DNA of 64,000 nucleotides from a virus (lineage: Duplodnaviria; Heunggongvirae; Uroviricota; Caudoviricetes): positions 30,889 to 94,888 of IMG/VR virus record IMGVR_UViG_3300038548_000082. One strand, given 5' to 3'. Made by a program: the position numbers and the translations under genes. A model generated the notes under the pieces. It was given only the letters and a program-made list of their open reading frames with translations. It made no database searches and was not told where the DNA came from. This document shows positions 20,763 through 60,984 of the stretch, piece after piece (the stretch's first letter is position 1; every line of letters begins with the position of its first letter).

Positions 20763-20836
20763 AGCCCCTTACTTAACAGGAGAAAGCTTAGTTTACGAAA
20801 CTAAGGATCAGGGTTCGAGTCCTTGAGGGGCTGCCA
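20763..20836 (+). tRNA. tRNA-Arg (anticodon ACG)
   Basis: Manual fold: acceptor AGCCCCT/AGGGGCT, AC stem TTAGT/ACTAA loop TTACGAA, T-loop TTCGAGT, CCA encoded. Confidence 0.7.
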
Positions 20837-21143
20837 ACATAGGAGAAGTTAAAATGAAAGTAACATGCAGTAAAGTTAAACGTCTCCGACAAGGTGGCGG
20901 CTCTAGTAACAGTCCTACAGTTACCAGTAAAGTAACAGCATTCCGATGGCAACCTAAAGACCTAAGCGATATTAAAGGTATTTAGGGTTACGGACACAAG
21001 GTGTCAGAAGGATTCCAAACCCTTCTTACGGGGAGCATTACCTCGGTAGCCTGCCAAAGAGAGAACAACGGATTAAGGGACAGGTACTTGCATCCTGCTT
21101 ATCGACGCTGTAACAAGCTTAGCAAGAAAAGTAAAATAAAGAG

Positions 21144-21171
21144 TTGACATATACAAGAGTCGTGTTATTAT
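21144..21171 (+). promoter_or_regulatory. promoter (TTGACA-16-TATTAT) with hairpin across -10
   Basis: Sequence. Confidence 0.5.
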
Positions 21172-21287
21172 AACCACTCTTGAAGAAAGAAATCCAAAGT
21201 AACTTAACAGAAACTAAGGAGGACGATATGCAAATCGGGGGCTAAAGACCCTCAGCCAAGAAAAGTAGAATTAACTGTTGACAGTGA

Positions 21288-21315
21288 GTAAAAACGTGTT
21301 ATACTGTGCAACATA
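21288..21315 (+). promoter_or_regulatory. promoter (TTGACA-16-TATACT) upstream of tRNA-Lys
   Basis: Sequence. Confidence 0.6.
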
Positions 21316-21376
21316 ACTTAAACTAACCCATAAGGAGGGTTTCAATGAAACAATCAGACAAACCCAATAAACTTAT

Positions 21377-21452
21377 GGGTGTGTAGCTCAATTGGTAGAG
21401 CAGGGAGCTTTTAACTCTCAGGTCGTCGGTTCAATCCCGACCACACCCACCA
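21377..21452 (+). tRNA. tRNA-Lys (anticodon TTT)
   Basis: Manual cloverleaf; GGGTGTG/CACACCC acceptor, loop CTTTTAA, CCA encoded. Confidence 0.85.
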
Positions 21453-21849
21453 AAGAGTGTATTTAAAGGAGACCTTTAACCACAACAGTTATAACATCGT
21501 GTTGATGTAGAAACAGTAAAGTTAGAGATCTCGTTTAAGTATATTCACTTGAAATAGATAATTCAGTGTAGCCTAAGAAGCAGCTTGAATGTACTTATAG
21601 ATCCTTTTAATTGACACATAGCAGCTAGTAATGAGTGACTAATTAGTCAATGTGTTCTATAAAATATTAACAATGAAACATTTGCTCTACGCACTAAACA
21701 GTAGAAACACATCTTATAAAGAAGATTAGTGGATGTAGAGCACTTAATTAAGGAGATTATCATGGAATCACGAGAGATTATAACCGATCCCAGATAACTC
21801 ACCGCAAACTATAAACGGTTGTGGTGGGTTTTATTTAGGATCACTACAA

Positions 21850-21926
21850 CCGAGTGTGGGGCAGTTTGGTAGCCTACTCTGTTTGGAACGGAGGTGTCGC
21901 AGGTTCGAATCCTGCCACTCGGACCA
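21850..21926 (+). tRNA. tRNA-Pro (anticodon TGG)
   Basis: Manual cloverleaf; loop TTTGGAA; T-loop TTCGAAT. Confidence 0.8.
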
Positions 21927-21939
21927 ATTTTTAAATTGT

Positions 21940-22015
21940 GTCCTTATAGTTTATATGGTTAGAACGGTGGGCTTTCACCCCGCAGAACCGAGTTCGATCC
22001 TCGGTAAGGACACCA
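21940..22015 (+). tRNA. tRNA-Glu (anticodon TTC)
   Basis: Manual cloverleaf; loop CTTTCAC. Confidence 0.8.
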
Positions 22016-22017
22016 AT

Positions 22018-22093
22018 GCTCTGGTAGCTCAGTTGGTAGAGCAAACGGTCGATAACCGTTAGGTCATTGGTTCAAGTCCAATACAGAGTACCA
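22018..22093 (+). tRNA. tRNA-Ile (anticodon GAT), C at position 33
   Basis: Manual cloverleaf; loop TCGATAA; 7-66 mismatch. Confidence 0.6.
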
Positions 22094-22100
22094 AATTAAT

Positions 22101-22170
22101 GCGGATAAGCTTAAGGTTAGTCGCTGGGTTTCCAACCCATGTAGTTAGGGTTCGACTCCCTGTATCCGCT
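22101..22170 (+). tRNA. tRNA-Gly (anticodon TCC), 3' CCA not encoded
   Basis: Acceptor GCGGATA/TATCCGC as in T4 tRNA-Gly; loop TTTCCAA; ends ...GCT then CAA. Confidence 0.7.
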
Positions 22171-22321
22171 CAAACATTGACAGCAAGATCTGAGGAAAGG
22201 TGGTTTCATGCAGTGAGATGCAGTCCTCTATAAATCTCGTAAAGCTCCTAATGTAGGAGTCGAACCACACGCTGTTAATTAGTCCATATGCTTTGGAAGA
22301 GTAATGGACGACCAAATTAAA

Positions 22322-22396
22322 GGTTTTGTAGCTCAGAGGCAGAGCAGTCGGTTGTCAGCCGTCAGGTCGGGATTTCAAAATTCCTCAAAACCGCCA
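22322..22396 (+). tRNA. tRNA-Asp (anticodon GTC)-like, noncanonical T-arm
   Basis: Acceptor GGTTTTG/CAAAACC; loop TTGTCAG; U-U mismatch in AC stem, weak 53-61 pair; possibly pseudogene. Confidence 0.45.
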
Positions 22397-22398
22397 AT

Positions 22399-22474
22399 GC
22401 TCGAATAGCTCAGTTGGCAGAGCGCCTCCCTTGTAAGGAGGATGTCGTGGGTTCAACTCCTACTTTGAGCGCCA
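22399..22474 (+). tRNA. tRNA-Thr (anticodon TGT)
   Basis: Manual cloverleaf; loop CTTGTAA. Confidence 0.8.
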
Positions 22475-22557
22475 AATTAAACGGGGGTGCTATAGACAAG
22501 GCTGGATAATTACCAGATGATATAGATTCCATCTCCGACCAAACAATTGCGGTATAG

Positions 22558-22633
22558 AGAAGTGGTTATCTCGTTGGGTTCATAACCCAAAGATCGGGGG
22601 TTCAAATCCCTCTACCGCTACCAAACATTAATT
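22558..22633 (+). tRNA. tRNA-Met (CAT), initiator-like
   Basis: GGG/CCC in anticodon stem, A11-U24, 1-72 mismatch (T-T); loop TTCATAA. Confidence 0.75.
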
Positions 22634-22655
22634 AATACAAGGCTGTATATATTAA

Positions 22656-22865
22656 ATGAGCGTGATACATTTAACGACTAAGATACAAGAAACAATTAAA
22701 ACGATCCTTACCCCTTTGGAAAAGACTGAAATGGAAGAGGTGATCGAGTCAGTAAATGATGAAAGTACTATTCGAGGCGAATGGGCTTTTGAAGCTGGTA
22801 AAAAGGCTAGAGATGTAGGAAGAACTAATTCACCACCTGAAGTCTACGATGTTTTAGTAGACTGA
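22656..22865 (+). CDS. hypothetical protein
   Basis: ORF track. Confidence 0.4.
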   Translation: MSVIHLTTKIQETIKTILTPLEKTEMEEVIESVNDESTIRGEWAFEAGKKARDVGRTNSPPEVYDVLVD

Positions 22866-22888
22866 AGTTACTTAACAAGTACAAACAA

Positions 22889-22965
22889 TTCCTCGTGGGG
22901 CGCAAGGTGTGCCGAGTGGCTGTTAACCACTGTCGTAGTAACGTTCGATTCGTTAACGGGGAGCC
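22889..22965 (+). tRNA. tRNA-Asn (anticodon GTT)
   Basis: Acceptor TCCTCGT/ACGGGGA, AC stem AGTGG/CCACT loop CTGTTAA, T-loop TTCGATT; 7-nt variable loop. Confidence 0.65.
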
Positions 22966-23048
22966 AATTTCGACTAGACATACTTAAATCGTGAGTTCAC
23001 GAGCCTTCGGGTGGGTTGGTCAAGTCTCTGTTAATATGGAGACAAAAC

Positions 23049-23423
23049 ATGAAAGTTTGCACTTTGTGCGAAGAGAATAAACCCTTAACCGAGTTTAGGA
23101 AAAGGGCTAATAGAACCGGGTATCATGTACACTGTAAACCCTGCCAAGTCCTTTACGTGAGTAATAGGAGAAGGGAAATAAAGAAGCAGTGTCTTGAGTA
23201 TAAAGGTGGGTGTTGTTCAAAGTGTGGTTACGATAAATCAGACTATGCTTTAGAGTTTCACCACAGAGACCCCGAAAAGAAAGACTTCAGTATAAATAGA
23301 GGAGCTTCTTTAGTTTTTGATAAACTAAAAGAGGAACTTGATAAATGTGACTTACTTTGTGCTAATTGCCACAGAGAGGAACACGAACGATTAACACATA
23401 CACTAGGAGATTCGTCATTATGA
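23049..23423 (+). CDS. HNH endonuclease
   Basis: CTLC...C..C zinc knuckle, EFHHRDP and CANCH motifs. Confidence 0.65.
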   Translation: MKVCTLCEENKPLTEFRKRANRTGYHVHCKPCQVLYVSNRRREIKKQCLEYKGGCCSKCGYDKSDYALEFHHRDPEKKDFSINRGASLVFDKLKEELDKCDLLCANCHREEHERLTHTLGDSSL

Positions 23424-23500
23424 ACTTTACTTATCAACATAGCCAATTTAGTTTCCAATATTACTTTAGTTAGATAAGTAGGTTCCCGAGTGGATGCTTA

Positions 23501-23584
23501 TTTAATATAGGGTCTGCTCGCATGATGGAGAATGCACCGCACTGTAAATGCGCTACGAGAGTTGTCTTGGTTCGATTCCAAGTA
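23501..23584 (+). tRNA. tRNA-Tyr (anticodon GTA), type II
   Basis: Loop CTGTAAA, long variable arm, T-loop TTCGATT. Confidence 0.6.
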
Positions 23585-23591
23585 GGCCCAC

Positions 23592-23677
23592 CAAAATTTA
23601 GGAAGATTGGCAGAGCGGTAATGCAGCTCCCTGCTAAGGAGTACAGTCGAAAGGCTGCGTAGGTTCGATTCCTACAT
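23592..23677 (+). tRNA. tRNA-Ser (anticodon GCT), type II
   Basis: Acceptor GGAAGAT/ATCTTCC, loop CTGCTAA, long variable arm. Confidence 0.8.
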
Positions 23678-23678
23678 C

Positions 23679-23754
23679 TTCCGCCAAGGGTCTGTAGCTC
23701 ATCTGGTAGAGCATCGGTGTGAAGTACCGAGTGTAATAGGTTCAAGTCCTATCA
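23679..23754 (+). tRNA. tRNA-Phe (anticodon GAA)
   Basis: Manual cloverleaf; loop GTGAAGT. Confidence 0.8.
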
Positions 23755-23877
23755 GGCCCACCAAATTATAGTGGTGGTCTAATGCAAACAGGTGAGCAGC
23801 TGGATTGTGATTCCAGTGATATGGAGTTCGAGACTCCAAGGCCACACATCTATTCTATCAACGTCGAGGAGACTGTT

Positions 23878-24264
23878 ATGGATACAAAAACGAAGGCTAA
23901 ACAAAAGAAAGCCCTTCAACTTGGTATGAACCCTGCCACAGCGAGTGGTAGGTTGGTTAAAGATACGCTATTCCGCTTAGCTGTATCTACAGGACACAAG
24001 TGCTTCCAGTGCGGTGAAGAACTAACCAGAGAAACGTTCTCCATAGAGCACATGGAACCGTGGTTAGATAGCGAAGACCCTAAAGGTAACTTCTTTGACC
24101 AAGGTAATATAGCTTTTAGCCACCTTAGTTGTAATCGTGCAGCAGCCCGCCCCAGACCACGTACAGCAACTCGTGCAGAGGCACAAGCTACCTTTCGAGG
24201 TAGATTGGGTAAAACCGAACAGGCTAGACGACGAAAGGAGCAGTACCAACGTACAGGCACCTAG
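23878..24264 (+). CDS. HNH endonuclease (terminase-associated type?)
   Basis: CFQCGEEL...SIEHMEPW...SHLSCN; internal ATG with GAGGAG RBS chosen over 23782. Confidence 0.55.
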   Translation: MDTKTKAKQKKALQLGMNPATASGRLVKDTLFRLAVSTGHKCFQCGEELTRETFSIEHMEPWLDSEDPKGNFFDQGNIAFSHLSCNRAAARPRPRTATRAEAQATFRGRLGKTEQARRRKEQYQRTGT

Positions 24265-24559
24265 ACACCAATTAATAAGGTTTTTATTATGAGTACAGAA
24301 GTGTAACTTACGTCAATAAGACGACAGTAAACATCAAAATTAAGGAGCTACAAAAGCTTCTTAAAACTGCACAGAACCCCATTATAAAAGATAGGCTTCT
24401 GGTAGACTTAAAGTCATATAGGGCAATAAAGCACCTATTAGATCAAAAAGATTAAAAGGAAATATACCAATGTTCAAAATTACTTACATACTATTATCGC
24501 TCTCGTTATCCCTTAAATAGGGAGGATGAGTAGCACCTTATCTTCCTTAACAATACATT

Positions 24560-24645
24560 GGAAGGTAGGGCTTAGTGGTAAGCAACTAGTCTTGAAAACT
24601 AGCCCTGTGTAAAAGCAGATGGTTCGACTCCATTACCTTCCTCCA
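24560..24645 (+). tRNA. tRNA-Ser (anticodon TGA), type II
   Basis: Acceptor GGAAGGT/ACCTTCC, loop CTTGAAA. Confidence 0.75.
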
Positions 24646-24652
24646 AACAATC

Positions 24653-24729
24653 GCTCCGGTGGTCAAATTGGAATAGGCAGCAGACTTAAAATCTGTGGAT
24701 TGCGAGTTCAACTCTCGCTCGGAGCACCA
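24653..24729 (+). tRNA. tRNA-Leu (anticodon TAA) with short variable loop
   Basis: Loop CTTAAAA, A73 discriminator, 5-nt variable loop (atypical for Leu). Confidence 0.65.
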
Positions 24730-24734
24730 AACAT

Positions 24735-24811
24735 GGGCTGGTATAAGAATTGGCATATTTGCCTCGCTTAGAACGAGGAGTTTTCGGGTTCGAGTCCCGA
24801 TCAGCCCACCA
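24735..24811 (+). tRNA. tRNA-Leu (anticodon TAG) with short variable loop
   Basis: Loop CTTAGAA, A73, 5-nt variable loop. Confidence 0.65.
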
Positions 24812-30854: not shown

Positions 30855-31937
30855 ATGAAAATTGAACAAAGTGGAATCGAATTCGATAAGGCGCTAAGCC
30901 CTGCACAAGGAAGCGATTTTGAGATGGAGGACGTAAGTCCTCTCGTGGAACGAACTGAGGTCTCTCCGGGCCTCTTGACTGCCCTTTTAGGTGGGATGAC
31001 TAACGATGTTTTCCTAGAAACTAATACCATCAAGTATGATGAACTGGATGACACCGCTCAGTTGCCTGACGGTAAGGCGTTTGATGCTTACGGTCCAGAC
31101 ATTCAGAAAGACAAAGCTCGTCAGTTAATCTACGAAGTAGGTTCTTTCGGGATTCGTTCTAACGTAGCTCCTAAGGATTACGCAAATAAGCGTGTTCCCG
31201 GTACACAGGAACTAATGGATGAAGCATACCTGTTAGGTCGTATGAACATGAAGGCTGAGAAGTCTTGGGCAATGTTCGATGAGCTGGCTTTTGCTCAGCT
31301 ACTGACTCTGGATACAAACATCACTCGTGGTGGTCCTCAGCCAGTATACAACTACCATACAGATATTCTGGGTGGTGCTCGTCCCGCTAAGATCTCTATG
31401 AACTTGGCTGGTTCTGTAGATCACTTCCAACTGTTTGCTGAGCAACTTGACTTGCTGGAAACTGACGTTGAGAAGACCAACAACACTATGGATATGCCAG
31501 TGGTTATCTGTGGTAAGGACTTCTTCAACACACGTCTGACTATTGAGAAGCAAGAAGGACTAGCCCGTGATATGCGTGGTATCCTTGATCTGCAAACAAT
31601 GGGTGTACCAACTAGTAGCTTCGGTTCTGGTAATGGTCGTTTCCAATATCAGTGGTTCGATTCTTTCGACGGTCTACGTTACATCCGTTACAGTGCCTCT
31701 ATTCTGGGTACTAAGATGATCGGTGACGACGATGCTTACTTGATCCCTATCGGTGCTGAAACGTTCATGAAACGTGCTTATGCTCCTGCTCAGACACGTA
31801 CATACGTTAATACCACTGCTCAGAAGCGTTATGCTTGGAGTCGTGAGCATGAGCGTAATGGCGTAACAATGAATCAGGAAAGTAATTGCCTTCCTATCGA
31901 CGTGAATCCACAACTGATTCGTGCGTTGACTGTTTAA
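30855..31937 (+). CDS. major capsid protein
   Basis: 360 aa, position, followed by strong terminator. Confidence 0.65.
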   Translation: MKIEQSGIEFDKALSPAQGSDFEMEDVSPLVERTEVSPGLLTALLGGMTNDVFLETNTIKYDELDDTAQLPDGKAFDAYGPDIQKDKARQLIYEVGSFGIRSNVAPKDYANKRVPGTQELMDEAYLLGRMNMKAEKSWAMFDELAFAQLLTLDTNITRGGPQPVYNYHTDILGGARPAKISMNLAGSVDHFQLFAEQLDLLETDVEKTNNTMDMPVVICGKDFFNTRLTIEKQEGLARDMRGILDLQTMGVPTSSFGSGNGRFQYQWFDSFDGLRYIRYSASILGTKMIGDDDAYLIPIGAETFMKRAYAPAQTRTYVNTTAQKRYAWSREHERNGVTMNQESNCLPIDVNPQLIRALTV

Positions 31938-48742: not shown

Positions 48743-49075
48743 ATGCCACCATTCGATGATTTAATAGGTTGGTTTTTTAAAGTAGCTATTGCGGGAATTA
48801 TGTCTTTCCTATGGTGGGGTAAGAAAGAGGACAAGAAATTGTTAGAATCCCATTCAGAAGAAATTGTAAAACTTAGATCAACGGCTGTTACGGAAGATAA
48901 AGTGAGAGAAATTATCACTGAAGTTACCTGTACAGCTATTCATCCTATGATCGAAACCATGTCGGAAATTAAACGACTGGTAAGTGATAATAGGGAAATA
49001 ACAAAGTCTCTCCAACTTAAAATGGCAGAGCAAGAAGGGTATCAAAAAGCTCTTAAAGAAATGACAGATAAGTAA
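48743..49075 (+). CDS. membrane protein with N-terminal TM (lysis-module candidate)
   Basis: Hydrophobic N-terminus + charged coiled C-terminus. Confidence 0.4.
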   Translation: MPPFDDLIGWFFKVAIAGIMSFLWWGKKEDKKLLESHSEEIVKLRSTAVTEDKVREIITEVTCTAIHPMIETMSEIKRLVSDNREITKSLQLKMAEQEGYQKALKEMTDK

Positions 49076-49085
49076 CAGGTGAACT

Positions 49086-49514
49086 ATGGCGTACATACTT
49101 ACTCTACTATTTATTGCACCTTTCATTGATAGGAAGGAGAGTAGGTGGTTCGTTAGTGCATACGCTTTTATATTCTTTGTTACGAGAGAACTCCACAGCA
49201 TTTTTAATGTTGTAGGAGCTGATGGGTTCTTAGTAAACTCTTACGTTCAAATGGCCTGTATGTGTCTGAGCGTCTTTCTCCTTGAGGGTAAGGAAAGGGT
49301 TATCTCTGCCTTAGTCTTTCTCCTGTTTGCTACCTACAACGTTTGTGTAGCTCTCTGGTGGGGAGTTATCCCTTTGTTCTTTCATCCGTGGTTAGTCGTT
49401 GGGGTTATCATGTTACAAATGACAATAGTAACTTTCAAAGAGAGAGGTATTGTTAAAAACACACTTATGATATGCATAGCTACTATAGTAAACTTTGTGG
49501 CGATTAGGTACTAA
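49086..49514 (+). CDS. multi-pass (4 TM) membrane protein
   Basis: Hydropathy by eye. Confidence 0.45.
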   Translation: MAYILTLLFIAPFIDRKESRWFVSAYAFIFFVTRELHSIFNVVGADGFLVNSYVQMACMCLSVFLLEGKERVISALVFLLFATYNVCVALWWGVIPLFFHPWLVVGVIMLQMTIVTFKERGIVKNTLMICIATIVNFVAIRY

Positions 49515-49516
49515 TT

Positions 49517-49747
49517 ATGAAGAAGCCAGCTCACCAGCATTTGAGAGATTGGAGAATAGTTCAAATCGGAGTAACAGGTTTTCTATGTTACGTCCTTTAC
49601 GTTCTAGTTGTATGGATGGTGGCAACACCTTTTGTAAGTTTACAAACTTGGCACTTAGCACCAATCACAATTGCATTCCCAGCCCTAGTAACTGGATTGT
49701 TCGCAATTGTTAACACTATCATGAAAAGGAATGAGAAGGAGGAATGA
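49517..49747 (+). CDS. holin-like small membrane protein (2 TM)
   Basis: 76 aa, two hydrophobic stretches, charged C-terminus. Confidence 0.45.
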   Translation: MKKPAHQHLRDWRIVQIGVTGFLCYVLYVLVVWMVATPFVSLQTWHLAPITIAFPALVTGLFAIVNTIMKRNEKEE

Positions 49748-50165
49748 TATGGCTTGGTACTCAACACTGTTATCCCCGTTGGTTTCAACCATTGGCGGTT
49801 ACTTTAAAGATAAGCAAAAGAATAAAGCAGATAAAAGCAAGCGTAAGGATGAGTTAACACAAGCTAAGCATGAAGCTTCTGTTGAAAGAATTAAACGAGG
49901 TGATAAGGCTGAAGCGGATTATGATAGAATAGCTCAGCAAGCTAAGAAGAATACTATGATGGACGAGATCCTAATTCTTTGGACGCTTGTCATTGTAACA
50001 CTACTCTTTATTCCAGCTACAGCCCCAATTGCAACAGCAGGTTTTGTAGCTTTAGGAACTGCACCAGTTTGGTTCCAGCTAATCTTTATCGGCTGCTATA
50101 TCTCAACCCTTGGTTTGCGATTCTTATTCAGCGGTAGAACGCTGCTAGGTAAAGTAGTTAAGTAA
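49731..50165 (+). CDS. membrane protein (basic N-domain, 2 C-terminal TM)
   Basis: ORF track. Confidence 0.45.
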   Translation: MRRRNDMAWYSTLLSPLVSTIGGYFKDKQKNKADKSKRKDELTQAKHEASVERIKRGDKAEADYDRIAQQAKKNTMMDEILILWTLVIVTLLFIPATAPIATAGFVALGTAPVWFQLIFIGCYISTLGLRFLFSGRTLLGKVVK

Positions 50166-50205
50166 TTTATATCTCAGTTCCTCCTGTTGGTTGTAATGAC
50201 CAACC

Positions 50206-50238
50206 TTGCCTCCTTAGAGAAATCTTTGGAGGCTTTTT
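50206..50238 (+). terminator. rho-independent terminator
   Basis: GCCTCC-loop-GGAGGC + TTTTTT. Confidence 0.65.
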
Positions 50239-50243
50239 TGTGC

Positions 50244-50272
50244 TTGACAGAAAGTGAAGCTCATGGTATACT
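50244..50272 (+). promoter_or_regulatory. sigma70 promoter (TTGACA-17-TATACT) for HEG
   Basis: Sequence. Confidence 0.6.
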
Positions 50273-50297
50273 AACGTTTTATCAAATAGAGTTTAAA

Positions 50298-50906
50298 ATG
50301 AGTAAAGCTACGAGAAAAACCTACGTATACCAGATAGCACGACAAAAAGATGTAGGAGATACAACTAAGGGGTACATTGGGGTCAGCTATAGACCAATGT
50401 ACAGGTTTGCTCAGCACAAGGGACATAGCCCGTGTAATTTAATACTGACCAGAAATTTCAATAAGTACGAGGACTTAGTTATGAAGATACTATTTGAGGG
50501 AACCGAGCAGGAGGCTTATAAGAAAGAGGAAGAGTTACGACCTGATCCAGCGATGGGTTGGAATATAGTACAAGGGGGTAACATACCTCCAACTCGTATG
50601 GGTGGAAAGGTTAGCGACGAGACAAAGTTAAAACAGTCTAAGGCTAAGTTGGGAAATACAAATGTTGGGGAGGGGGAGAACCACCACTTTTACGGTAAAG
50701 TAGGTAAAGACTCTGTTAGGTTCGGTACTAAAGGAGAAAAATCACCCAATCATAAAGGCTTTTGGTTGACGCCAGAAGGAAAATTTGGTTCAATGTCCTT
50801 AGCGGCAGATCATTTTGGTTTGGCTAAGTCCACAATACACTACAGATGTAAAACAAGTACCGCTTGGCAAAAGAAAGGTTGGTGCTTTTTGGATAAGGAG
50901 GAGTAA
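50298..50906 (+). CDS. GIY-YIG homing endonuclease (NUMOD3 + C-terminal HTH)
   Basis: YVYQI...GYIGVS GIY-YIG motif; repeated KxxxHxxKxxxSxxxK; start moved downstream of promoter. Confidence 0.75.
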   Translation: MSKATRKTYVYQIARQKDVGDTTKGYIGVSYRPMYRFAQHKGHSPCNLILTRNFNKYEDLVMKILFEGTEQEAYKKEEELRPDPAMGWNIVQGGNIPPTRMGGKVSDETKLKQSKAKLGNTNVGEGENHHFYGKVGKDSVRFGTKGEKSPNHKGFWLTPEGKFGSMSLAADHFGLAKSTIHYRCKTSTAWQKKGWCFLDKEE

Positions 50907-50909
50907 GCT

Positions 50910-52085
50910 ATGTTAGAAGTACAAAAGTTTTTAAACAGAGAGACAGCGAACTACGGGGTAGGGGATGAGCAGCGAAAGGGGGAGCATGCACTTGCCATGC
51001 TAAAAGAAGCATACGGGATAAAAGCTAACATCTGGAAAGGGCAACTAGTTTGCTTAAACTATTGCCAGATAGAAAGCCCTAAGACTCACCCTATCACGAT
51101 AGAGTCCCGTTCTTTAGTACTAGAATTTGGATCTTGGGAGGTTATTTCAAGGTCGTTCTCAAGGTTCTTTAATCTAGGAGAGATCGGTGAGGTGAATGAA
51201 GAGTGGGTTCCTTGTCCTACTAAAGGTGTGAGTCGATTCCGTACTATGACCTTCCACGAGAAGATGGATGGTTCTTTGATTGGTATCTTCACTTACAAGA
51301 ACCAATTACTTTACCGTACTCGTTCTCTGATTATGCCAGAAGGGGATATCAATGGGACTGGAACTACTTGGAAGGAAGCTATTGAGTCTTGTTTACCTAT
51401 CTCTTGGCGACCTCCTTACAGTAGTGCTCTTGACGTTACATTGATCTGTGAGCTTACTTGTAGGGAGAATCGTGTGGTTGTTAAGTATGATGCCAAACCT
51501 GACTTGACGTTACTGGCTATAAGAGGTCGTGATGGTAAGTATCACGATGCTGAAACAGCTACGTTTATAGCAGACCGTTATGGTTTCTCACTTCCACATA
51601 CCTATAACTTTAGCACAACAGCTGACTGTTTAAGGGCTTGTAAAGAGCTACCAAACCTTGAAGAGGGTTACGTAGGTTATAACCCTGCTGGGATACCTTG
51701 TGTAAAGATTAAGAACCCAGCTTATGTAGCTGCTCATCACTTACGAGGTGAAGGCTTAAATGAGAAACGTATTCTTGATATAATCATTATGCATGAAGAG
51801 GTAGAGTACTTGACACTCTTCCCAGAAGATGAGAACATGTTCGAACCGTATACAGATGCTTATGCTGAAATGGTACAGTCTTTCTATACGTTAGAGAAGC
51901 TGATTAATGAATGGCACTTTGTTCAGATGGATCAGAAGACCTTTGCTATGTTCTTCAAGGACATGCATTACTCTGCTATGGCTTTCCAGATCAGGAAAGG
52001 TAAGACTTGGAAGCAAACGTTTGAAGGGTTGACACAACAGAAGAAACGTGATTTAATACTGAACTACAAAGGAGGATTAGAATGA
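50910..52085 (+). CDS. rnlA: RNA ligase 1 (T4 RnlA-type)
   Basis: Motif [10 protein letters not shown] (T4: KEDGSLVS), EGYVGY (motif IV) and [12 protein letters not shown] (T4: KIKSDWYVSLH). Confidence 0.8.
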
Positions 52086-52249
52086 AAAACAAACGAGGGT
52101 TTACCCTAATTGAACTTATGATTGTTGTTGCTGTTATGGGGATTCTGGCATCAGTGACAGTTCCAGCTTATGAAGATTATCAAGCACGTCAAAACGGCAC
52201 AATGATTTCTTCTGAGAAAAGTGTTGACAACGGTATGATGCTTCAGTAA
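52082..52249 (+). CDS. 55-aa type IV pilin-like (prepilin) peptide
   Basis: MKNKRG|[31 protein letters not shown]: class III signal with G-1, F+1, E+5; AGGAGG 6 nt upstream; ATGA overlap with rnlA stop. Confidence 0.55.
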
Positions 52250-52252
52250 GAT
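52224..52252 (+). promoter_or_regulatory. promoter AAGTGTTGACA-17-TAAGAT (within 3' end of pilin-like ORF)
   Basis: Same extended -35 as early cassette. Confidence 0.55.
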
Positions 52253-52304: not shown

Positions 52305-53183
52305 ATGAAAAACATTACACTTCCAAAACTGATCGGCGGTGTTGCCGCTTTACTTCTTACCCTTATCGTGAGCTTGAATAGCTTTACAATCTGTGGTGTA
52401 GGTGAGGAATGCACAGCAACAGCCTTTGGTAAGGTTGTACAAGAAGATATCACGGGTTTTGAAATCATGCCTTTCTGGTATACCGTTCATACCATGAACA
52501 TAAAGGATCAATCTTGGTCTTTTAATGACATGGGAGTACCAGCTAAAGATAAGTTCAAAACGTCAATGGACGTAAGCTTTAATGGTAAGTTTATGTCTGG
52601 GTTCGGTGGGGAGATTACGACTAATGTCGGTACTACGAGTCAGTTCCTCCGAACGCACGTAAACAAGCCTATGCGTTCTTGTGTTATTAAGGCGGGTACT
52701 GCTACTGACAACTCCAAGGAGTTCTTTGATGAAGCAACTCAACGGTTAATGGCACAGACAGCTAAAGAGTGTGTCAACACATACCTTGAGAACATTAAGG
52801 ACACTGGTGGAGCCTTTAAGGTTACAGAAGTACGGTTCTCTGATATCCGATTAGACTCTCGTGTTGAGGCGATGATCGTCAAGACTAAAGAACGAGAAGA
52901 AGCTGAAGAACGTCAAGCATCTCAACTACGTATCAAAGACCTTGAAGCTCAAGAGGTTCAGAAAGTTGCAGCAGCTAACAAGCTAGCAGCAAAGGATAAC
53001 AAAGATGCTGCGATCTCTAAAGCAGAGGGGGTTAAGGAATCTATGATTCTGGAGGCGGAAGGTAACGTCAAGTTAGCTAAGTCAATTACTCCTGCCCTTG
53101 TAGAGTATATCAAGGCTAAGAACTGGGATGGTAAACGGTCTACCCACGTCCTTGGATCAAACACTTCAATGTTCTTGAAGTAA
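52305..53183 (+). CDS. SPFH/band-7 (HflK/C-, stomatin-like) membrane protein
   Basis: N-terminal TM, SPFH core, C-terminal EREEAEERQ...coiled coil. Confidence 0.7.
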   Translation: MKNITLPKLIGGVAALLLTLIVSLNSFTICGVGEECTATAFGKVVQEDITGFEIMPFWYTVHTMNIKDQSWSFNDMGVPAKDKFKTSMDVSFNGKFMSGFGGEITTNVGTTSQFLRTHVNKPMRSCVIKAGTATDNSKEFFDEATQRLMAQTAKECVNTYLENIKDTGGAFKVTEVRFSDIRLDSRVEAMIVKTKEREEAEERQASQLRIKDLEAQEVQKVAAANKLAAKDNKDAAISKAEGVKESMILEAEGNVKLAKSITPALVEYIKAKNWDGKRSTHVLGSNTSMFLK

Positions 53184-53202
53184 ACTAAAGAAAGGAAATA
53201 AA

Positions 53203-53230
53203 GGGGTTGCTTCGGCAGCCCTTTTGTGTT
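53203..53230 (+). terminator. rho-independent terminator (UUCG tetraloop)
   Basis: GGGGTTGC-TTCG-GCAGCCC + TTTTGTGTTT. Confidence 0.65.
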
Positions 53231-53606: not shown

Positions 53607-54515
53607 ATGAGCTGGGAAACCCCTTACACAGTAGTCTATGAAGATGATGCAATCCGCTTACTCTGCTTCCGAGAAGTTGATGGCAATCCTATAGTAATCG
53701 TACCTCCACAGGCAGGACATTCAAGTTGGATTGCTGATTACGGTAAAGGTCAAAGCCTTGTCGCAGCTGCAATGGAAACCAGCAATGCTCCTGTGTATTG
53801 TATCGATTTCAAAAGTTGCACATTTGCCAGAAAGCGTGAAGGTATTATGGACCTGCTAAGTCAAGTTGAGATTGCCATAAGCCATGCTGGTGATTGTCCA
53901 GTACACCTTATTGGTCTATGTCAAGGTGGTTGGTTGTCTACGATATTCACTGCCCTCTATCCAGAGCAAGTTGCAAGTCTTACAGTTGCTGGTGCTCCTA
54001 TCGATGCTCATGCTGGCGATTGTATCCTTGCAGATGCTATTAAGAAACCTATGTGGCAATATGAGCTGGTAGTCAAAATGGGTTTAGGTTTAGTTCATGG
54101 GGAGTTTATGCTTGCCAATTGGAAAGCTCCCAATGCTCGAAAGCACTACATAGATCGTTATTTGTTCCCAAGTGAGCGTAATGAGAAATTCTACTCTTGG
54201 TACGATAAAACTTGTGATATAGCAGGCGGCTGGTATCTTTGGTGTATTCAGAACCTTTTTAAAAACAATGATCTTATTCATAATCGTATGGAGATTGATG
54301 GACAAGAAGTGAAGCTATCAAACATCGATTGCCCTGTGTATCTAATTGCAGGAGAGCGTGATGATATCTCTCCAAAAGAGCAAACATTTAATCTGGCTGA
54401 TGCTGTAAGTGGTTATTCACTTAATATCTTGATTCCAAATGCAGGTCATATTGGAGTCTTCATGGGGCCTAAGTCTATGCCAGTTTGGAAGGAACACATC
54501 TTTTCTAAAATGTAG
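53607..54515 (+). CDS. alpha/beta hydrolase with Cys nucleophile (PhaC/PhaZ-like lipase box GLCQGG)
   Basis: G-x-C-x-G-G box, Asp and His candidates downstream. Confidence 0.5.
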   Translation: MSWETPYTVVYEDDAIRLLCFREVDGNPIVIVPPQAGHSSWIADYGKGQSLVAAAMETSNAPVYCIDFKSCTFARKREGIMDLLSQVEIAISHAGDCPVHLIGLCQGGWLSTIFTALYPEQVASLTVAGAPIDAHAGDCILADAIKKPMWQYELVVKMGLGLVHGEFMLANWKAPNARKHYIDRYLFPSERNEKFYSWYDKTCDIAGGWYLWCIQNLFKNNDLIHNRMEIDGQEVKLSNIDCPVYLIAGERDDISPKEQTFNLADAVSGYSLNILIPNAGHIGVFMGPKSMPVWKEHIFSKM

Positions 54516-57898: not shown

Positions 57899-58088
57899 AA
57901 GTAATATGAAATACGAGATAGGGGATGAAGTAAACTTCTATCAGAATAAAGAGGTCCGTACAGGCACTGTCAGTTTTATTGGTAGTAGTTTTATTTCTGT
58001 TTACCCAAACACGGCAGAAGTTTCAGATGCAGCTGGTGAGCCTATACGAGAGATTGAATATGTTGTTGAGAAAGGAGATATTATATGA
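57879..58088 (+). CDS. hypothetical protein
   Basis: ORF track. Confidence 0.35.
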   Translation: MATRKHKSNMKYEIGDEVNFYQNKEVRTGTVSFIGSSFISVYPNTAEVSDAAGEPIREIEYVVEKGDII

Positions 58089-58942
58089 GTAGTTTTACAG
58101 TGAGGTTATGTGGAACCAGACAATCTTATTGCACAATGGAGTACACTCTTTTTAATGGTGGTGAAGTAAACCTACGGTTACCTGAGAATTTCCTAGGTAA
58201 TCCAGAGGTGGGGTCAGTTATTGTTGACGCTTGGCTGCAAAGTTCAGATGATATTATAGCTTTGTGTATGCTCACTGATGCGTTGAAACGAGAATATCCA
58301 GTTGCCAAGTACCAACTTCTAATAAACTATATCCCCTATGCTAGGCAGGATAGAGTGTGTAATGAAGGCGAGGCTTTATCTATTAAGGTTTTTGCTAATA
58401 TTATTAATACTCTAAGCTTCGATTCTGTGGCGTTAATAGACCCACATAGTGAAGTCGCAGGTGCTGTACTGGATAATGTAACTCGTGTAGTCACACAAGA
58501 TGAGATTATACAAACGTCCCCTGTGTTAGCTACTAAGCTAAGCGAAAAAGGCGTCATTCTGATTTCCCCTGATGCTGGAGCTACGAAGAAGACTGAAACC
58601 GTTTCTAAAGCTTTTGGTGGTGTACCAGTAGTTCAGGGTTATAAGCAACGGGATCTAGCCACAGGAGCATTATCAGGCTTCGGTGTTAGCGATCCTGAAG
58701 GACTACTACATCAAGCTGATTGTCTAATTGTAGATGATATCTGTGATGGTGGTGGAACTTTCCTAGGGTTAGCTGCTGAACTACGTAAGGCTGGTGCTCA
58801 AACTGTTTCACTCTATGTCACTCACGGTATCTTTTCACAAGGAATTGAGAAACTACTGGACAATGGTATTGACCGTGTGTACACTACGGATTCATTCTTA
58901 AGTGGGGAACAGCATGAGCGACTTGAAGTTATCAAACTGTGA
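58085..58942 (+). CDS. prs: ribose-phosphate pyrophosphokinase (PRPP synthetase)
   Basis: PRPP-binding loop LIVDDICDGGGT. Confidence 0.8.
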   Translation: MSSFTVRLCGTRQSYCTMEYTLFNGGEVNLRLPENFLGNPEVGSVIVDAWLQSSDDIIALCMLTDALKREYPVAKYQLLINYIPYARQDRVCNEGEALSIKVFANIINTLSFDSVALIDPHSEVAGAVLDNVTRVVTQDEIIQTSPVLATKLSEKGVILISPDAGATKKTETVSKAFGGVPVVQGYKQRDLATGALSGFGVSDPEGLLHQADCLIVDDICDGGGTFLGLAAELRKAGAQTVSLYVTHGIFSQGIEKLLDNGIDRVYTTDSFLSGEQHERLEVIKL

Positions 58943-59235
58943 GATCAAAGACTACATCTTGCTGAAGCACGTAAGCAGAGATAGTGGTAAACTTAGAACT
59001 TATTTCATCAAGAGGAGCACTTTGGATGGGAACAGCTACGAGTTTGAAGATGGTTTCAACGAGCGGTATGCTATGCTGCTATCAGACATTGTTACGGAAG
59101 GTCATCTTGTATTCAAATGCAGGTACGACATTAACACCCTACTACTGTTAGGATTAAACATTTATTAAATAATGGTGGACACTTACTCAGTAAATCAGTA
59201 TAGTGTCCTCACTAACTAATACAAAGGAGAAACAC

Positions 59236-60984
59236 ATGAGTAATTTCCCAGCCACTTTGAGTTCAGACGTCTATAAGGTATTCCACCCAGCAGCAGGTCA
59301 CCCTGATATTGTGGCAACCTACGAGAACTTTACAAACCGTAGTGGACGTTTGAGTAACGTCAAAGATAATAAGGCTGTAGTCAATGTAGGTTGGCAGGCT
59401 GTTATTAAGAAGCACTTGATTGACCGTTGGAATAACACCTTCTTCAAGGTAGAGAAGTCTAAGGCTATTGCCCGTTACAAGGTGGTAACTACATCTATCC
59501 TAGGTTACGAAGTCTCTACCACTCACTTGGAGAAGCTACATGATCTTGGCTACTTGCCACTACGTGTTAAGACTTACCCCGAAGGTACTTTAGTTCCTTA
59601 TAGTGTCGCTAGTGCTACATTTGAAACAACTGTATTTGGTTTTGAATGGTTGCCCGGTATGCTTGAGACTGTTATCTCTCAAGAGGTTTGGCCCATTCAG
59701 ACTGCGGCTACCACCTCTCTTGCGTATCAGCGTAAGCAGAAACAGTTATTTGAAGAAACTGGTGGTCCTATGGAGCTGTTACCTTTCATGATTCACGACT
59801 TCTCAGCGCGTGGTGGCTTTGGTGAAGAAGCTTCTGCAATGTCAGGTTTTGGTCACCTAGCAGCAGGTTCAGCAGGTTCGGATACTATCGCAGCAGGTAT
59901 GTTTGCTGAGGAGTACTACTGTGCTGACTGGGAGAATGAATTGATTATGGCTTCCGTCAACGCCACTGAACATAGCGTTACCTGTGGATGGTTAGAAGAA
60001 GGTGAAGCAGTATACTTCAAGCACTTGATGGAGAACGTTGCACCTGAGGGCATCCTGTCCGTTGTATCGGATACTTGGGACTTCTGGCACACTGTTACTG
60101 TAATTGCAGACGAGCTTAAAGAAGTTATCATGAACCGTAATGGTAAGCTTGTGTTCCGTCCTGATAGTGGTGACCCTGTTGATATCTTGTGTGGTACAGG
60201 AGCTGAGTTTAATTTTGAAACCTTGGAAGACGCTCTAGATGAATTTGAGGACTACCACTCTAACCAAGCAACCGAAGATTGTGAGGGTGCTTATAATATT
60301 GGCAACGAGAGCTACACTGATCTAGTTCAGGCTGACGGTAAATACTACGAGATCACTACCAAGTTTGAATATAACCGCCACGACAAGATGTACTACTTCA
60401 TTGACAATTATACCTCTGGATATGGAGAACCTGTTGCAGTGGAAGTAGAAGCTACACCAGAAATGAAAGGTCTTGTAGAAGTCCTATGGGATACCTTCGG
60501 TGGTACAGTTACTGACAAAGGTTTCAAGATGCTTGACGAACACGTTGGTGCTATCTACGGTGATGCAATCACATTAGAACGTCAGGACCAGATTGGTGAC
60601 CGTTTGAAGGCTAAAGGCTTCGTACCTCAGGTAGTACTTGGTGTAGGCTCTTTTAGTTTCCAGTACGTTACTCGTGATACTCACGGCTCAGCTATGAAGG
60701 CTACTAATGTGACTAAGGTAGATCATGTAGCTGCTTCTGAGACGTTTGGGGAGACCCCAACTTATGACCAACCAATCTTCAAAGATCCTAAAACGGATTC
60801 TAAGAAGAAGTCTGCTAAAGGTCTACTACGAGTAGAACGTGAAGATGGTCAGCTTGTTCAATACGACATGCAAACTCGTGAGCAAGAGAAAGAAGGCTTA
60901 CTACAAGTTGTCTTTGAAGATGGTGTGCTGTACAATGAGCAAACCTTAAAAGGCATCCGAGAGCTTGTTGCAAGTCAGCTGTAA
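59236..60984 (+). CDS. nadV: nicotinamide phosphoribosyltransferase
   Basis: N-terminal NFPATLSSDVYKVFHP and overall ~580 aa NAMPT-like; AAGGAG RBS. Confidence 0.8.
   Translation: MSNFPATLSSDVYKVFHPAAGHPDIVATYENFTNRSGRLSNVKDNKAVVNVGWQAVIKKHLIDRWNNTFFKVEKSKAIARYKVVTTSILGYEVSTTHLEKLHDLGYLPLRVKTYPEGTLVPYSVASATFETTVFGFEWLPGMLETVISQEVWPIQTAATTSLAYQRKQKQLFEETGGPMELLPFMIHDFSARGGFGEEASAMSGFGHLAAGSAGSDTIAAGMFAEEYYCADWENELIMASVNATEHSVTCGWLEEGEAVYFKHLMENVAPEGILSVVSDTWDFWHTVTVIADELKEVIMNRNGKLVFRPDSGDPVDILCGTGAEFNFETLEDALDEFEDYHSNQATEDCEGAYNIGNESYTDLVQADGKYYEITTKFEYNRHDKMYYFIDNYTSGYGEPVAVEVEATPEMKGLVEVLWDTFGGTVTDKGFKMLDEHVGAIYGDAITLERQDQIGDRLKAKGFVPQVVLGVGSFSFQYVTRDTHGSAMKATNVTKVDHVAASETFGETPTYDQPIFKDPKTDSKKKSAKGLLRVEREDGQLVQYDMQTREQEKEGLLQVVFEDGVLYNEQTLKGIRELVASQL

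Follow-up and report, generated by a model that had tools for sequence, protein, structure and literature searches.

Type IV pili are organelles of motility, adhesion, and DNA uptake, and they are major receptors for phages. Their prepilin subunits insert into the membrane with the N-terminus inside and the C-terminus outside (N-in/C-out); the prepilin peptidase PilD then cuts after the glycine at position -1 and methylates the phenylalanine at position 1. Glu5, Gly14, and Pro22 are assembly-critical residues of pilins, Glu5 pairs with the N-terminus of the neighboring subunit in polymerization, and the head domain forms the surface of the fiber. Here, we describe a phage gene encoding a 55-residue peptide that carries a prepilin signal and no head domain, hereafter referred to as the mini-pilin. 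The gene lies in a 64,000-nucleotide stretch (the window) of the tailed-phage record IMGVR_UViG_3300038548_000082 (Caudoviricetes; positions 30,889 to 94,888 of that record). It is under purifying selection, and pilin-like genes recur next to genes for SPFH membrane proteins in at least five phage lineages.

Several described systems resemble parts of this locus. Six virulent Pseudomonas phages encode a family of truncated PilA proteins (P-PilA) of about 60 residues (Sztanko et al., Cell Rep 2026, PMC12952977). Like the mini-pilin, these proteins retain the pilin N-terminal helix only. The phages that carry P-PilA are non-temperate. Two hypotheses, untried in that work, were put forward: incorporation into the pilus without the phage-binding sites, or inhibition of assembly (PMC12952977). 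Unlike P-PilA, the mini-pilin belongs to a different phage lineage with a different, probably marine host and to an RNA ligase (rnl)/pilin/SPFH setting; the tails are unrelated, as in the 59-residue example from the Nankokuvirus Ab11, and the homology is that of the generic N-terminus. Judged from their sequences, the window peptide and the Ab11 protein appear to share a design, with no demonstrable orthologous family. The same study describes P-FimU of F10-like Pseudomonas phages, also a phage-encoded protein of the type IV pilin family, which uses the host pilus machinery in phage-phage competition; these prophage mimics of FimU are incorporated, block pilus-tip phages, and give anti-phage protection (PMC12952977). 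In contrast to the mini-pilin, P-FimU has the full length of a minor pilin, including a folded head with additional loops, is functional at the pilus tip, and is expressed from a prophage.

The N-terminal domain of gonococcal PilE comprises the same part of a type IVa major pilin at about the same length. Its first ~38-43 mature residues engage the machinery in a PilD-dependent manner and support transformation, and they form no pili (Obergfell and Seifert 2016, PMC4877100). Unlike the mini-pilin, this domain is a host product of nonsense variants or S-pilin cleavage, and transformation is sustained by it. PilA-N of Geobacter ('geopilin domain 1', 61 residues when mature; PDB 2m7g and 6vk9) is a naturally headless type IVa pilin that the window peptide matches with an E-value of about 1e-9; it is a bacterial structural subunit with a separate PilA-C, whereas the mini-pilin has SPFH and RNA ligase genes as neighbors. 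Superinfection exclusion by disabling type IV pili, the function proposed here, is exerted by PfsE, which binds PilC, and by Tip and Aqs1, which bind PilB. PfsE is also a tiny N-in peptide: it has 30 residues, resides in the inner membrane, and blocks type IV pili via PilC, and inhibitors of its type have a conserved aromatic YxWGW motif in a ~30-residue inner-membrane peptide (PMC8764522). These three proteins are unrelated to the mini-pilin in sequence and do not mimic pilins, and the phages that encode them are temperate or filamentous; the window peptide has no tryptophan, and the YxWGW motif is absent from it. In the SPFH-NfeD operon pairs of bacteria and archaea, as probably in the window, a gene for an SPFH scaffold and a gene for a small membrane protein stand in one transcription unit. 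Unlike NfeD, the mini-pilin has no OB-fold or protease domain (no NfeD match was found in Pfam at E <= 1), and a partnership with the SPFH protein would be deduced from gene adjacency.

A headless pilin gene under purifying selection

The mini-pilin gene has the following parts.

52082..52249, + strand: mini-prepilin gene, stop codon included; 55-residue open reading frame
52082-52099, + strand: leader MKNKRG, 6 residues, basic, net charge +3
52100-52246, + strand: mature chain of 49 residues, an alpha1-N transmembrane helix followed by a hydrophilic tail of 17-23 residues
52070-52075, + strand: Shine-Dalgarno AGGAGG, read from the sequence, with the 6-nucleotide spacer ATTAGA before the ATG at 52082

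The peptide begins with the prepilin signal MKNKRG/FTLIE (the slash marks the cleavage position), in which G-1, F+1, and E+5 are all present, and the mature chain also has G14, P22, Y24, and Y27. It matches the Pfam family N_methyl (PF07963) at 41.7 bits (curated cutoff 21.2, E = 7e-11) and the NCBIfam family TIGR02532 at 38.7 bits (curated cutoff 16.3), a strength far above chance for the few thousand small open reading frames of a 64-kb window. The equivalog cutoffs of full-length families are not reached: the peptide scores 43.8 bits against a cutoff of 400 for the type IVa major pilin PilA (NF041775), 42.3 bits against 138 for the type IVa major pilin PpdD (PRK10574), and 32.2 bits against 88.85 for GspG, a pseudopilin of the type II secretion system (TIGR01710). 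These scores are far under the cutoffs because only the first ~35-40 residues align; the partial resemblance is strongest to PilA and PpdD. The top matches among PDB structures are the PilA and PilE major pilins and Geobacter PilA-N. A regular-expression scan found no second prepilin-type open reading frame in the 64-kb window.

A hydropathy scan of the peptide gives one transmembrane segment at residues 9-27, and AlphaFold2 predicts a single helix (residues 9-38) followed by coil (residues 39-55), with no head domain. The 49 mature residues, which contain no cysteine and are modeled as helix and coil, hold no globular alpha/beta head, a domain whose D-region is disulfide-bonded in most pilins. 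No head domain is hidden downstream either, because there are no cysteines and only 55 nucleotides separate the stop codon from the next gene, the SPFH gene, which runs in another frame. The initial annotation had read a textbook prepilin signal, an alpha1-N helix, ~49 mature residues, and no head from this gene, and PF07963, TIGR02532, and AlphaFold2 agree with that description. On the predicted structure, the peptide is best regarded as a pilin-signal protein and not as a canonical pilin. Its sequence is that of a class III signal-anchor (Sec/SRP-type) with all the residues that prepilin peptidases and the assembly machinery recognize and nothing else, and the gene probably encodes a 'headless' mimic of a type IVa major pilin.

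The closest homolog of the mini-pilin is a 54-residue protein (P0002) of 64% identity found on two ENA contigs. Its gene stands directly 3' of a 61%-identical RNA ligase gene (in L002) and directly 5' of a 62%-identical SPFH gene; in L003, the SPFH ortholog downstream of the mini-pilin is 62% identical across 65 residues. Selection was assessed by Nei-Gojobori counts between the window mini-pilin and the L002 gene. Omega (dN/dS) is 0.19 for the entire mini-pilin frame, compared with 0.20 for the RNA ligase. For leader plus helix (codons 1-32), it is 0.065, with 13 synonymous versus 5 nonsynonymous differences, and for the tail it is about 0.31, where synonymous sites are saturated; the synonymous divergence (dS) of the mini-pilin genes is ~1.3, with synonymous sites near saturation. 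The stop codon stands at the same aligned position in both genes, and both have a consensus ribosome-binding site, AGGAGG in the window and GGAGG, 5 nucleotides before the ATG, in L002. The mini-pilin is therefore a real, functional gene under purifying selection, and the conservation in relatives that had been named as a check on it is found in the homolog, in the same synteny, and in the selection on both.

A decaying fragment of a captured host pilA, or a chance open reading frame with no function, is extremely unlikely. Such an origin could explain the very short peptide and the poorly conserved tail (omega ~0.3, dS saturated), but the low omega of the helix, the shared stop position, and the many phage lineages in which headless forms recur (see below) lead us to reject it, and with it the earlier suggestion of a pilin gene remnant. 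Length and stop have been kept at a dS of ~1.3, a consensus ribosome-binding site is present in both relatives, and no leftover head-coding sequence lies downstream. The initial annotation also called the gene unannotated. This is true of the open reading frame track on which it was based; an identical protein is, however, named by JGI in public collections as 'prepilin-type N-terminal cleavage/methylation domain-containing protein', and a Logan contig that already has the mini-pilin called on it is identical to the window across 20 kb.

Adjacency to SPFH genes and headless pilins in other phages

The mini-pilin gene is flanked in the window by the following features.

50910..52085, + strand: T4 Rnl1-type RNA ligase, 391 residues (PF09511, E = 4e-15; PF09414)
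52224-52252, + strand: promoter-like site TTGACA-N17-TAAGAT, sigma-70-like, 10/12 match, within the final codons and stop codon of the mini-pilin frame
52305..53183, + strand: SPFH/Band_7 membrane protein, 292 residues (PF01145, 27.9 bits, cutoff 23.6; phrog_200, E = 3e-25)
53198-53227, + strand: intrinsic-terminator-like hairpin, 13-bp stem with a T-rich tail, 3' of the SPFH gene

Pilin-like genes, headless or atypical, are neighbors of SPFH genes in at least five lineages, and either gene can come first. The SPFH neighbor, which the initial annotation had identified correctly as a membrane scaffold protein (PF01145 is above its cutoff) and had mentioned for this locus alone, is thus not incidental to the mini-pilin; the adjacency recurs across phage lineages.

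Lineage i, the window with L002 and L003: pilin, then SPFH
Lineage ii, L069: an 83-residue mini-pilin with a TTG start overlaps the 3' end of an SPFH gene whose product is 48% identical to that of the window
Lineage iii, Aeromonas T4-like phages: ORF087c, then ORF086c (75 residues) in phage 25, with 60AhydR15PP, L076, and GomatiRiver_11; SPFH 30% identical
Lineage iv, L081: mini-pilin, a 111-residue transmembrane protein, and a lipoprotein-type Band_7 protein without BLAST similarity to the window SPFH protein
Lineage v, L161, 2538-3995: SPFH, 10 nucleotides, then a 165-residue protein with the prepilin signal MLRKIKG/FTLIEL

In the 165-residue protein of L161, the prepilin signal is followed by a non-pilin, apparently folded C-terminal region. 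Full-length pilins, as sampled from IMG/VR, had an SPFH gene within 3.5 kb at 0 of 68 loci. Homologs of the SPFH protein (phrog_200) occur in 727 phage records, mostly of T5-like, RB43-like, Slopekvirus, and Aeromonas phages, and most of these are without a pilin. In the following cases, an SPFH gene that lacks a pilin neighbor has one or two small non-pilin transmembrane open reading frames (45-79 residues) immediately 3'.

L070, 3340-3797: small transmembrane frames 3' of SPFH
L067 (Aeromonas phage LAh_8), 3056-3256: small transmembrane frame 3' of SPFH
L068 (Escherichia phage PJNS034), 3923-4060: small transmembrane frame 3' of SPFH

These cases suggest that phages in general tend to place a gene for a small membrane peptide 3' of an SPFH gene. 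The null explanation for the adjacency is that membrane accessory genes cluster in plastic regions. No paper linking SPFH proteins to pilins was found in the literature searched; the adjacency of SPFH and phage pilin genes is, as far as found, unreported, and as an observation it is the most original lead of this analysis. Scans of IMG/VR with a single SPFH or Rnl sequence gave no matches, and alignment-based scans worked.

The window SPFH protein has a single N-terminal transmembrane segment with flanking charges of +2/-3. By the positive-inside rule, both this protein and the mini-pilin are predicted to be N-in/C-out, which would place the SPFH domain and the pilin tail in the periplasm. The label 'lipoprotein' attached to phrog_200 was rejected for the window protein, whose sole N-terminal cysteine stands in an FTIC context with Ile at -1 and, by eye, no canonical lipobox; the SPFH ortholog in L069 has no cysteine at this position.

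The promoter-like site in the 3' end of the mini-pilin gene reads toward the SPFH gene. L002 has TTGACG-N17-TAAGAT at the same place, and both hexamers are kept there although the rest of the tail has diverged. The tail DNA islands GTTGAC and TCAGTAAGATA are invariant between the window and L002, and because they coincide with the -35 and -10 hexamers, the conservation of the tail (V48-D49 and Q55-stop) may be partly at the DNA level. Promoter-like sites in the region are not above the level of shuffled sequences (6 found versus 6.2 expected). The pattern TTGAC-N18-TAAGAT with at most one mismatch occurs 5 times in the window versus 1.95 expected, which is not significant, since 5 were reached in 7 of 100 shuffles. 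Of the 'cassette-type' SPFH promoter originally placed inside the mini-pilin frame, a promoter-like site that is kept in the relative remains, and its repetition as a cassette finds no statistical support.

At the upstream junction, the ATG at 52082 shares its TG with the TGA of the RNA ligase gene (52083-52085), and this ATGA overlap and the AGGAGG 6 nucleotides before the ATG were both read correctly from the outset. An ATGA overlap of the mini-pilin with the preceding gene is found in three unrelated phages (window, 52082; L081, 4001; L008, 2501), and the mini-pilin of L069 overlaps the 3' end of the SPFH gene by 17 nucleotides. In the close relative L002, there is no start/stop overlap, and the junction reads TAA-GGAGG-ttat-ATG. 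The proposed translational coupling to the RNA ligase gene was therefore overstated, real as the overlap is in the window. The whole is consistent with one rnl/mini-pilin/SPFH unit with an internal promoter, closed by the terminator-like hairpin.

The RNA ligase gene is a less constant neighbor. No mini-pilin stands beside the ligase at 57 RNA-ligase-anchored loci of <=47% identity, and the rnl-pilin arrangement is therefore limited to a close clade, with the exception of L083 and L084. Among cultured phages, Vibrio phage D69 has the closest Rnl (42% identity), and there is no pilin-like open reading frame near its rnl gene. L083 (484-2547) and L084 represent a second lineage in which a 54-residue mini-pilin gene stands immediately 3' of an RNA ligase gene. 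Here the ligase belongs to another family (PHA02142/Rnl2-like OB-fold and PF09414) without BLAST similarity to the Rnl1-type ligase of the window, and the mini-pilin is followed by a gene for a GH19 lysozyme with an N-terminal transmembrane segment. The upstream RNA ligase is a second recurrence, weaker than the adjacency to SPFH genes.

Pilin-like N-termini were found by tblastn in 180 phage records, including phages of Synechococcus (49), Pseudomonas (49), Vibrio (32), Aeromonas (26), and Acinetobacter (8). The search for similar truncated pilin frames in phages that the initial annotation had proposed thus yields headless forms of 38-102 mature residues.

Delftia phage PhiW-14 gp119: 38 mature residues
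Window and L002 mini-pilins: 49 mature residues
Nankokuvirus Ab11 open reading frame (59 residues): 53 mature residues
KVP40-like ValKK3 ORF231, annotated 'PulG': 62 mature residues
Aeromonas T4-like phage mini-pilins: about 70 mature residues
Xanthomonas phage BUDD: 74 mature residues
Vibrio phage 1.081.O: 77 mature residues
Acibel004 and cyanophage ACG-2014f: 102 mature residues

More short forms occur on the large IMG/VR contigs L146, L147, L150, and L155 and on the metagenome contigs P0004 and P0060. A comparison of 13 phage mini-pilins shows invariance only at G-1, F1, T2, L3, E5, and a small number of helix positions, with tails that are unrelated to one another. The retention of only the pilin N-terminus across unrelated large phages is as expected if this is the active part; a simple anchor would not retain a charged glutamate in its transmembrane helix. 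Of the six pilin-like families in PHROGs, three are short, and only one has a label other than 'unknown function'. No functional data on cyanophage 'pilin' genes were found in the cyanophage literature searched. Headless phage pilins are a class already noted and annotated, of which the window copy is a new and very minimal member.

The mini-pilins of the Aeromonas T4-like phages (72-75 residues; L066, 2921-3148, which is ORF086c of phage 25, as well as L073, L074, and L076) have a conserved two-cysteine tail loop, ACP(H/N)G...LVCRK. This loop recalls the disulfide loop of pilins; the window peptide is cysteine-free.

The phage and its wider gene content

Among the genes of the window are those for a T4-like baseplate, a UvrD helicase, a DNA ligase, and NAD salvage, together with 16 tRNAs. 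Such a set of baseplate genes, tRNAs, and genes of DNA and nucleotide metabolism, as read from an incomplete genome, is typical of large virulent myoviruses. No near-identical DNA to the locus was found among INPHARED phages; the phage is known solely from metagenome assemblies, namely the record itself and the identical Logan contig, with the protein also at JGI. The nearest Rnl relatives, of about 40-43% identity, belong to phages of Vibrio, Paraglaciecola, and Pseudoalteromonas, which suggests that the host is a marine gammaproteobacterium. Because the window encodes no prepilin-peptidase-like protein with multiple transmembrane segments, any processing of the mini-pilin must rely on a host peptidase. 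Other features of the window are listed below.

20763-24811, + strand: 16 tRNA genes (Arg, Lys, Pro, Glu, Ile, Asp, Thr, Met, Asn, Tyr, Ser x2, Phe, His, Leu x2)
48743-50165: four successive small membrane-protein open reading frames of 110, 142, 76, and 144 residues with 1, 4, 2, and 2 predicted transmembrane segments
50187-50906: 239-residue open reading frame directly 5' of rnl, with the look of a GIY-YIG-type homing endonuclease by eye only and no Pfam match on record
53607-54515: 302-residue alpha/beta-hydrolase with PHB-depolymerase-like and DUF3141 matches and a weak esterase/lipase PHROG match
58085-60984: PRPP-synthetase-like and NAPRTase genes, which look like an NAD-salvage pair

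The four small membrane-protein frames are flanked by the baseplate/tail module on one side and the rnl region on the other and could be a lysis or membrane-remodeling cassette; those of 110, 142, and 144 residues have no Pfam family. The hydrolase gene, just 3' of the SPFH unit, is unusual for a phage.

Candidate roles of the mini-pilin

On balance, we lean toward the reading in which the mini-pilin is a PilD-processed inner-membrane decoy that blocks or corrupts the assembly of type IV filaments, with receptor removal and superinfection exclusion as the benefit. We infer its processing, target, and phenotype by analogy with the systems described above. The mini-pilin gene would share a transcript with its RNA ligase and SPFH neighbors and be efficiently translated from its AGGAGG site. 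The peptide would insert N-in/C-out into the inner membrane of the host, where the host prepilin peptidase would cleave it (G/F) and N-methylate the new N-terminus. The resulting decoy subunit would engage the components that recognize pilin N-termini, that is, the PilC platform, the PilMNOP alignment complex, the peptidase, and possibly the PilS sensor. Without a head, a normal fiber would be impossible, and assembly of the pilus, possibly also of the type II secretion system or a competence pseudopilus, would be blocked or corrupted. Loss of the phage receptor from infected cells would lead to superinfection exclusion, with fewer progeny lost on infected cells or debris; alternatively, the benefit could be a shutdown of DNA uptake or secretion. 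Joint action with the adjacent SPFH scaffold protein is possible. The ideas of poisoning and of PilD processing, both raised in the initial annotation, are plausible, and the same hypotheses have already been published for truncated PilA of Pseudomonas phages (PMC12952977).

Several considerations weigh against this decoy model. Type IV pili and PilD are assumed to be present in the host, and a generic N-terminus would not tell the target among type IVa pili, MSHA pili, the type II secretion system, and competence pili. The recurrent linkage to SPFH genes hints at a role that is not centered on pili. The gonococcal N-terminal domain sustained a function and did not poison, and by this analogy interference would be one possible outcome only. 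No functional study of truncated phage pilins was found in the literature searched. The conservation of the tail may be partly attributable to the embedded promoter, and the tail may be functionally unimportant.

Other roles accommodate part of the same evidence. The mini-pilin could be a small bitopic subunit that works with the phage SPFH protein and remodels or compartmentalizes the inner membrane during infection, a role we consider rather unlikely. In this reading, the pilin signal would serve insertion, orientation, and oligomerization; either the target would be something other than pili, or the two proteins would together corral the pilins or pilus platforms of the host. An SPFH partnership agrees with the adjacency in at least five lineages and both orders, with the lack of an SPFH gene within 3.5 kb at all 68 loci of full-length pilins sampled from IMG/VR, and with the other small transmembrane frames that stand 3' of SPFH genes where the pilin is absent (L070, LAh_8, PJNS034). 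The predicted N-in/C-out topology of both proteins, the terminator shared by rnl, mini-pilin, and SPFH, and the analogy to small membrane partners in SPFH operons point the same way. It is at odds with the mini-pilins that have no SPFH neighbor (KVP40-likes, PhiW-14, Ab11, Acibel004, BUDD, cyanophages, L083, L150, and L155) and with the absence of a pilin beside most phage SPFH genes (727 records); moreover, the peptide has no NfeD-like domain, no SPFH-pilin literature was found, and a tendency of accessory membrane genes to gather in plastic regions may be all that the adjacency reflects. A two-part device, in which an HflK/C-like, periplasm-facing SPFH cage uses or is targeted by the mimic helix and corrals host pilins, filament platforms, or another membrane machine, is unlikely.

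Distinctly unlikely is a regulatory or enzymatic decoy, which would mimic the pilin pool to PilS and silence host pilA, or would saturate the prepilin peptidase and leave prepilins and pseudopilins unprocessed. A direct intramembrane interaction of PilA with PilS was reportedly described by Kilmury and Burrows (PNAS 2016, as cited in PMC6058289). PilS-PilR responds to inner-membrane PilA levels (PMC6058289), the part retained in the mini-pilin is the conserved N-terminal segment, and the strong ribosome-binding site suggests high expression. A transcriptional effect would, however, be slow relative to the lytic cycle and the existing membrane pool of pilin, the control of pilA by PilS-PilR is not universal, and sequence alone does not distinguish such a decoy from a poison subunit. 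The odds are lower again for a camouflage subunit, put forward for truncated P-PilA by Sztanko et al. (PMC12952977), in which the headless pilin would co-polymerize into host pili and the fibers would persist with their phage-binding epitopes lacking or masked. Geobacter PilA-N (61 residues), a top PDB match of the peptide, does occur in filaments (2m7g, 6vk9), but the mini-pilin has no adjacent PilA-C-like partner, its neighbor being SPFH, and the gonococcal N-terminal domain alone formed no detectable filaments (PMC4877100). A headless subunit would also leave gaps in the fiber surface and not mask it.

If the decoy model of filament assembly is true, a peptide of ~50 residues that disables pili via the universal pilin N-terminus would be a compact and possibly broad-spectrum anti-pilus tool, and it would explain a type of 'hypothetical' gene scattered in large marine, Aeromonas, Vibrio, Pseudomonas, and cyanobacterial phages. 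The window mini-pilin is a clean candidate for a first functional test because it is an extremely minimal form (helix and short tail, no cysteines) with a diverged relative. A truncated phage pilin as such would not surprise a specialist; the pairing with SPFH could open a new question and gives a specific starting point for finding out what the SPFH proteins carried by hundreds of virulent phages do. If the two-part device with the SPFH protein were true, it would be a new phage module of host takeover or superinfection exclusion and the first functional link between SPFH proteins and type IV filaments.

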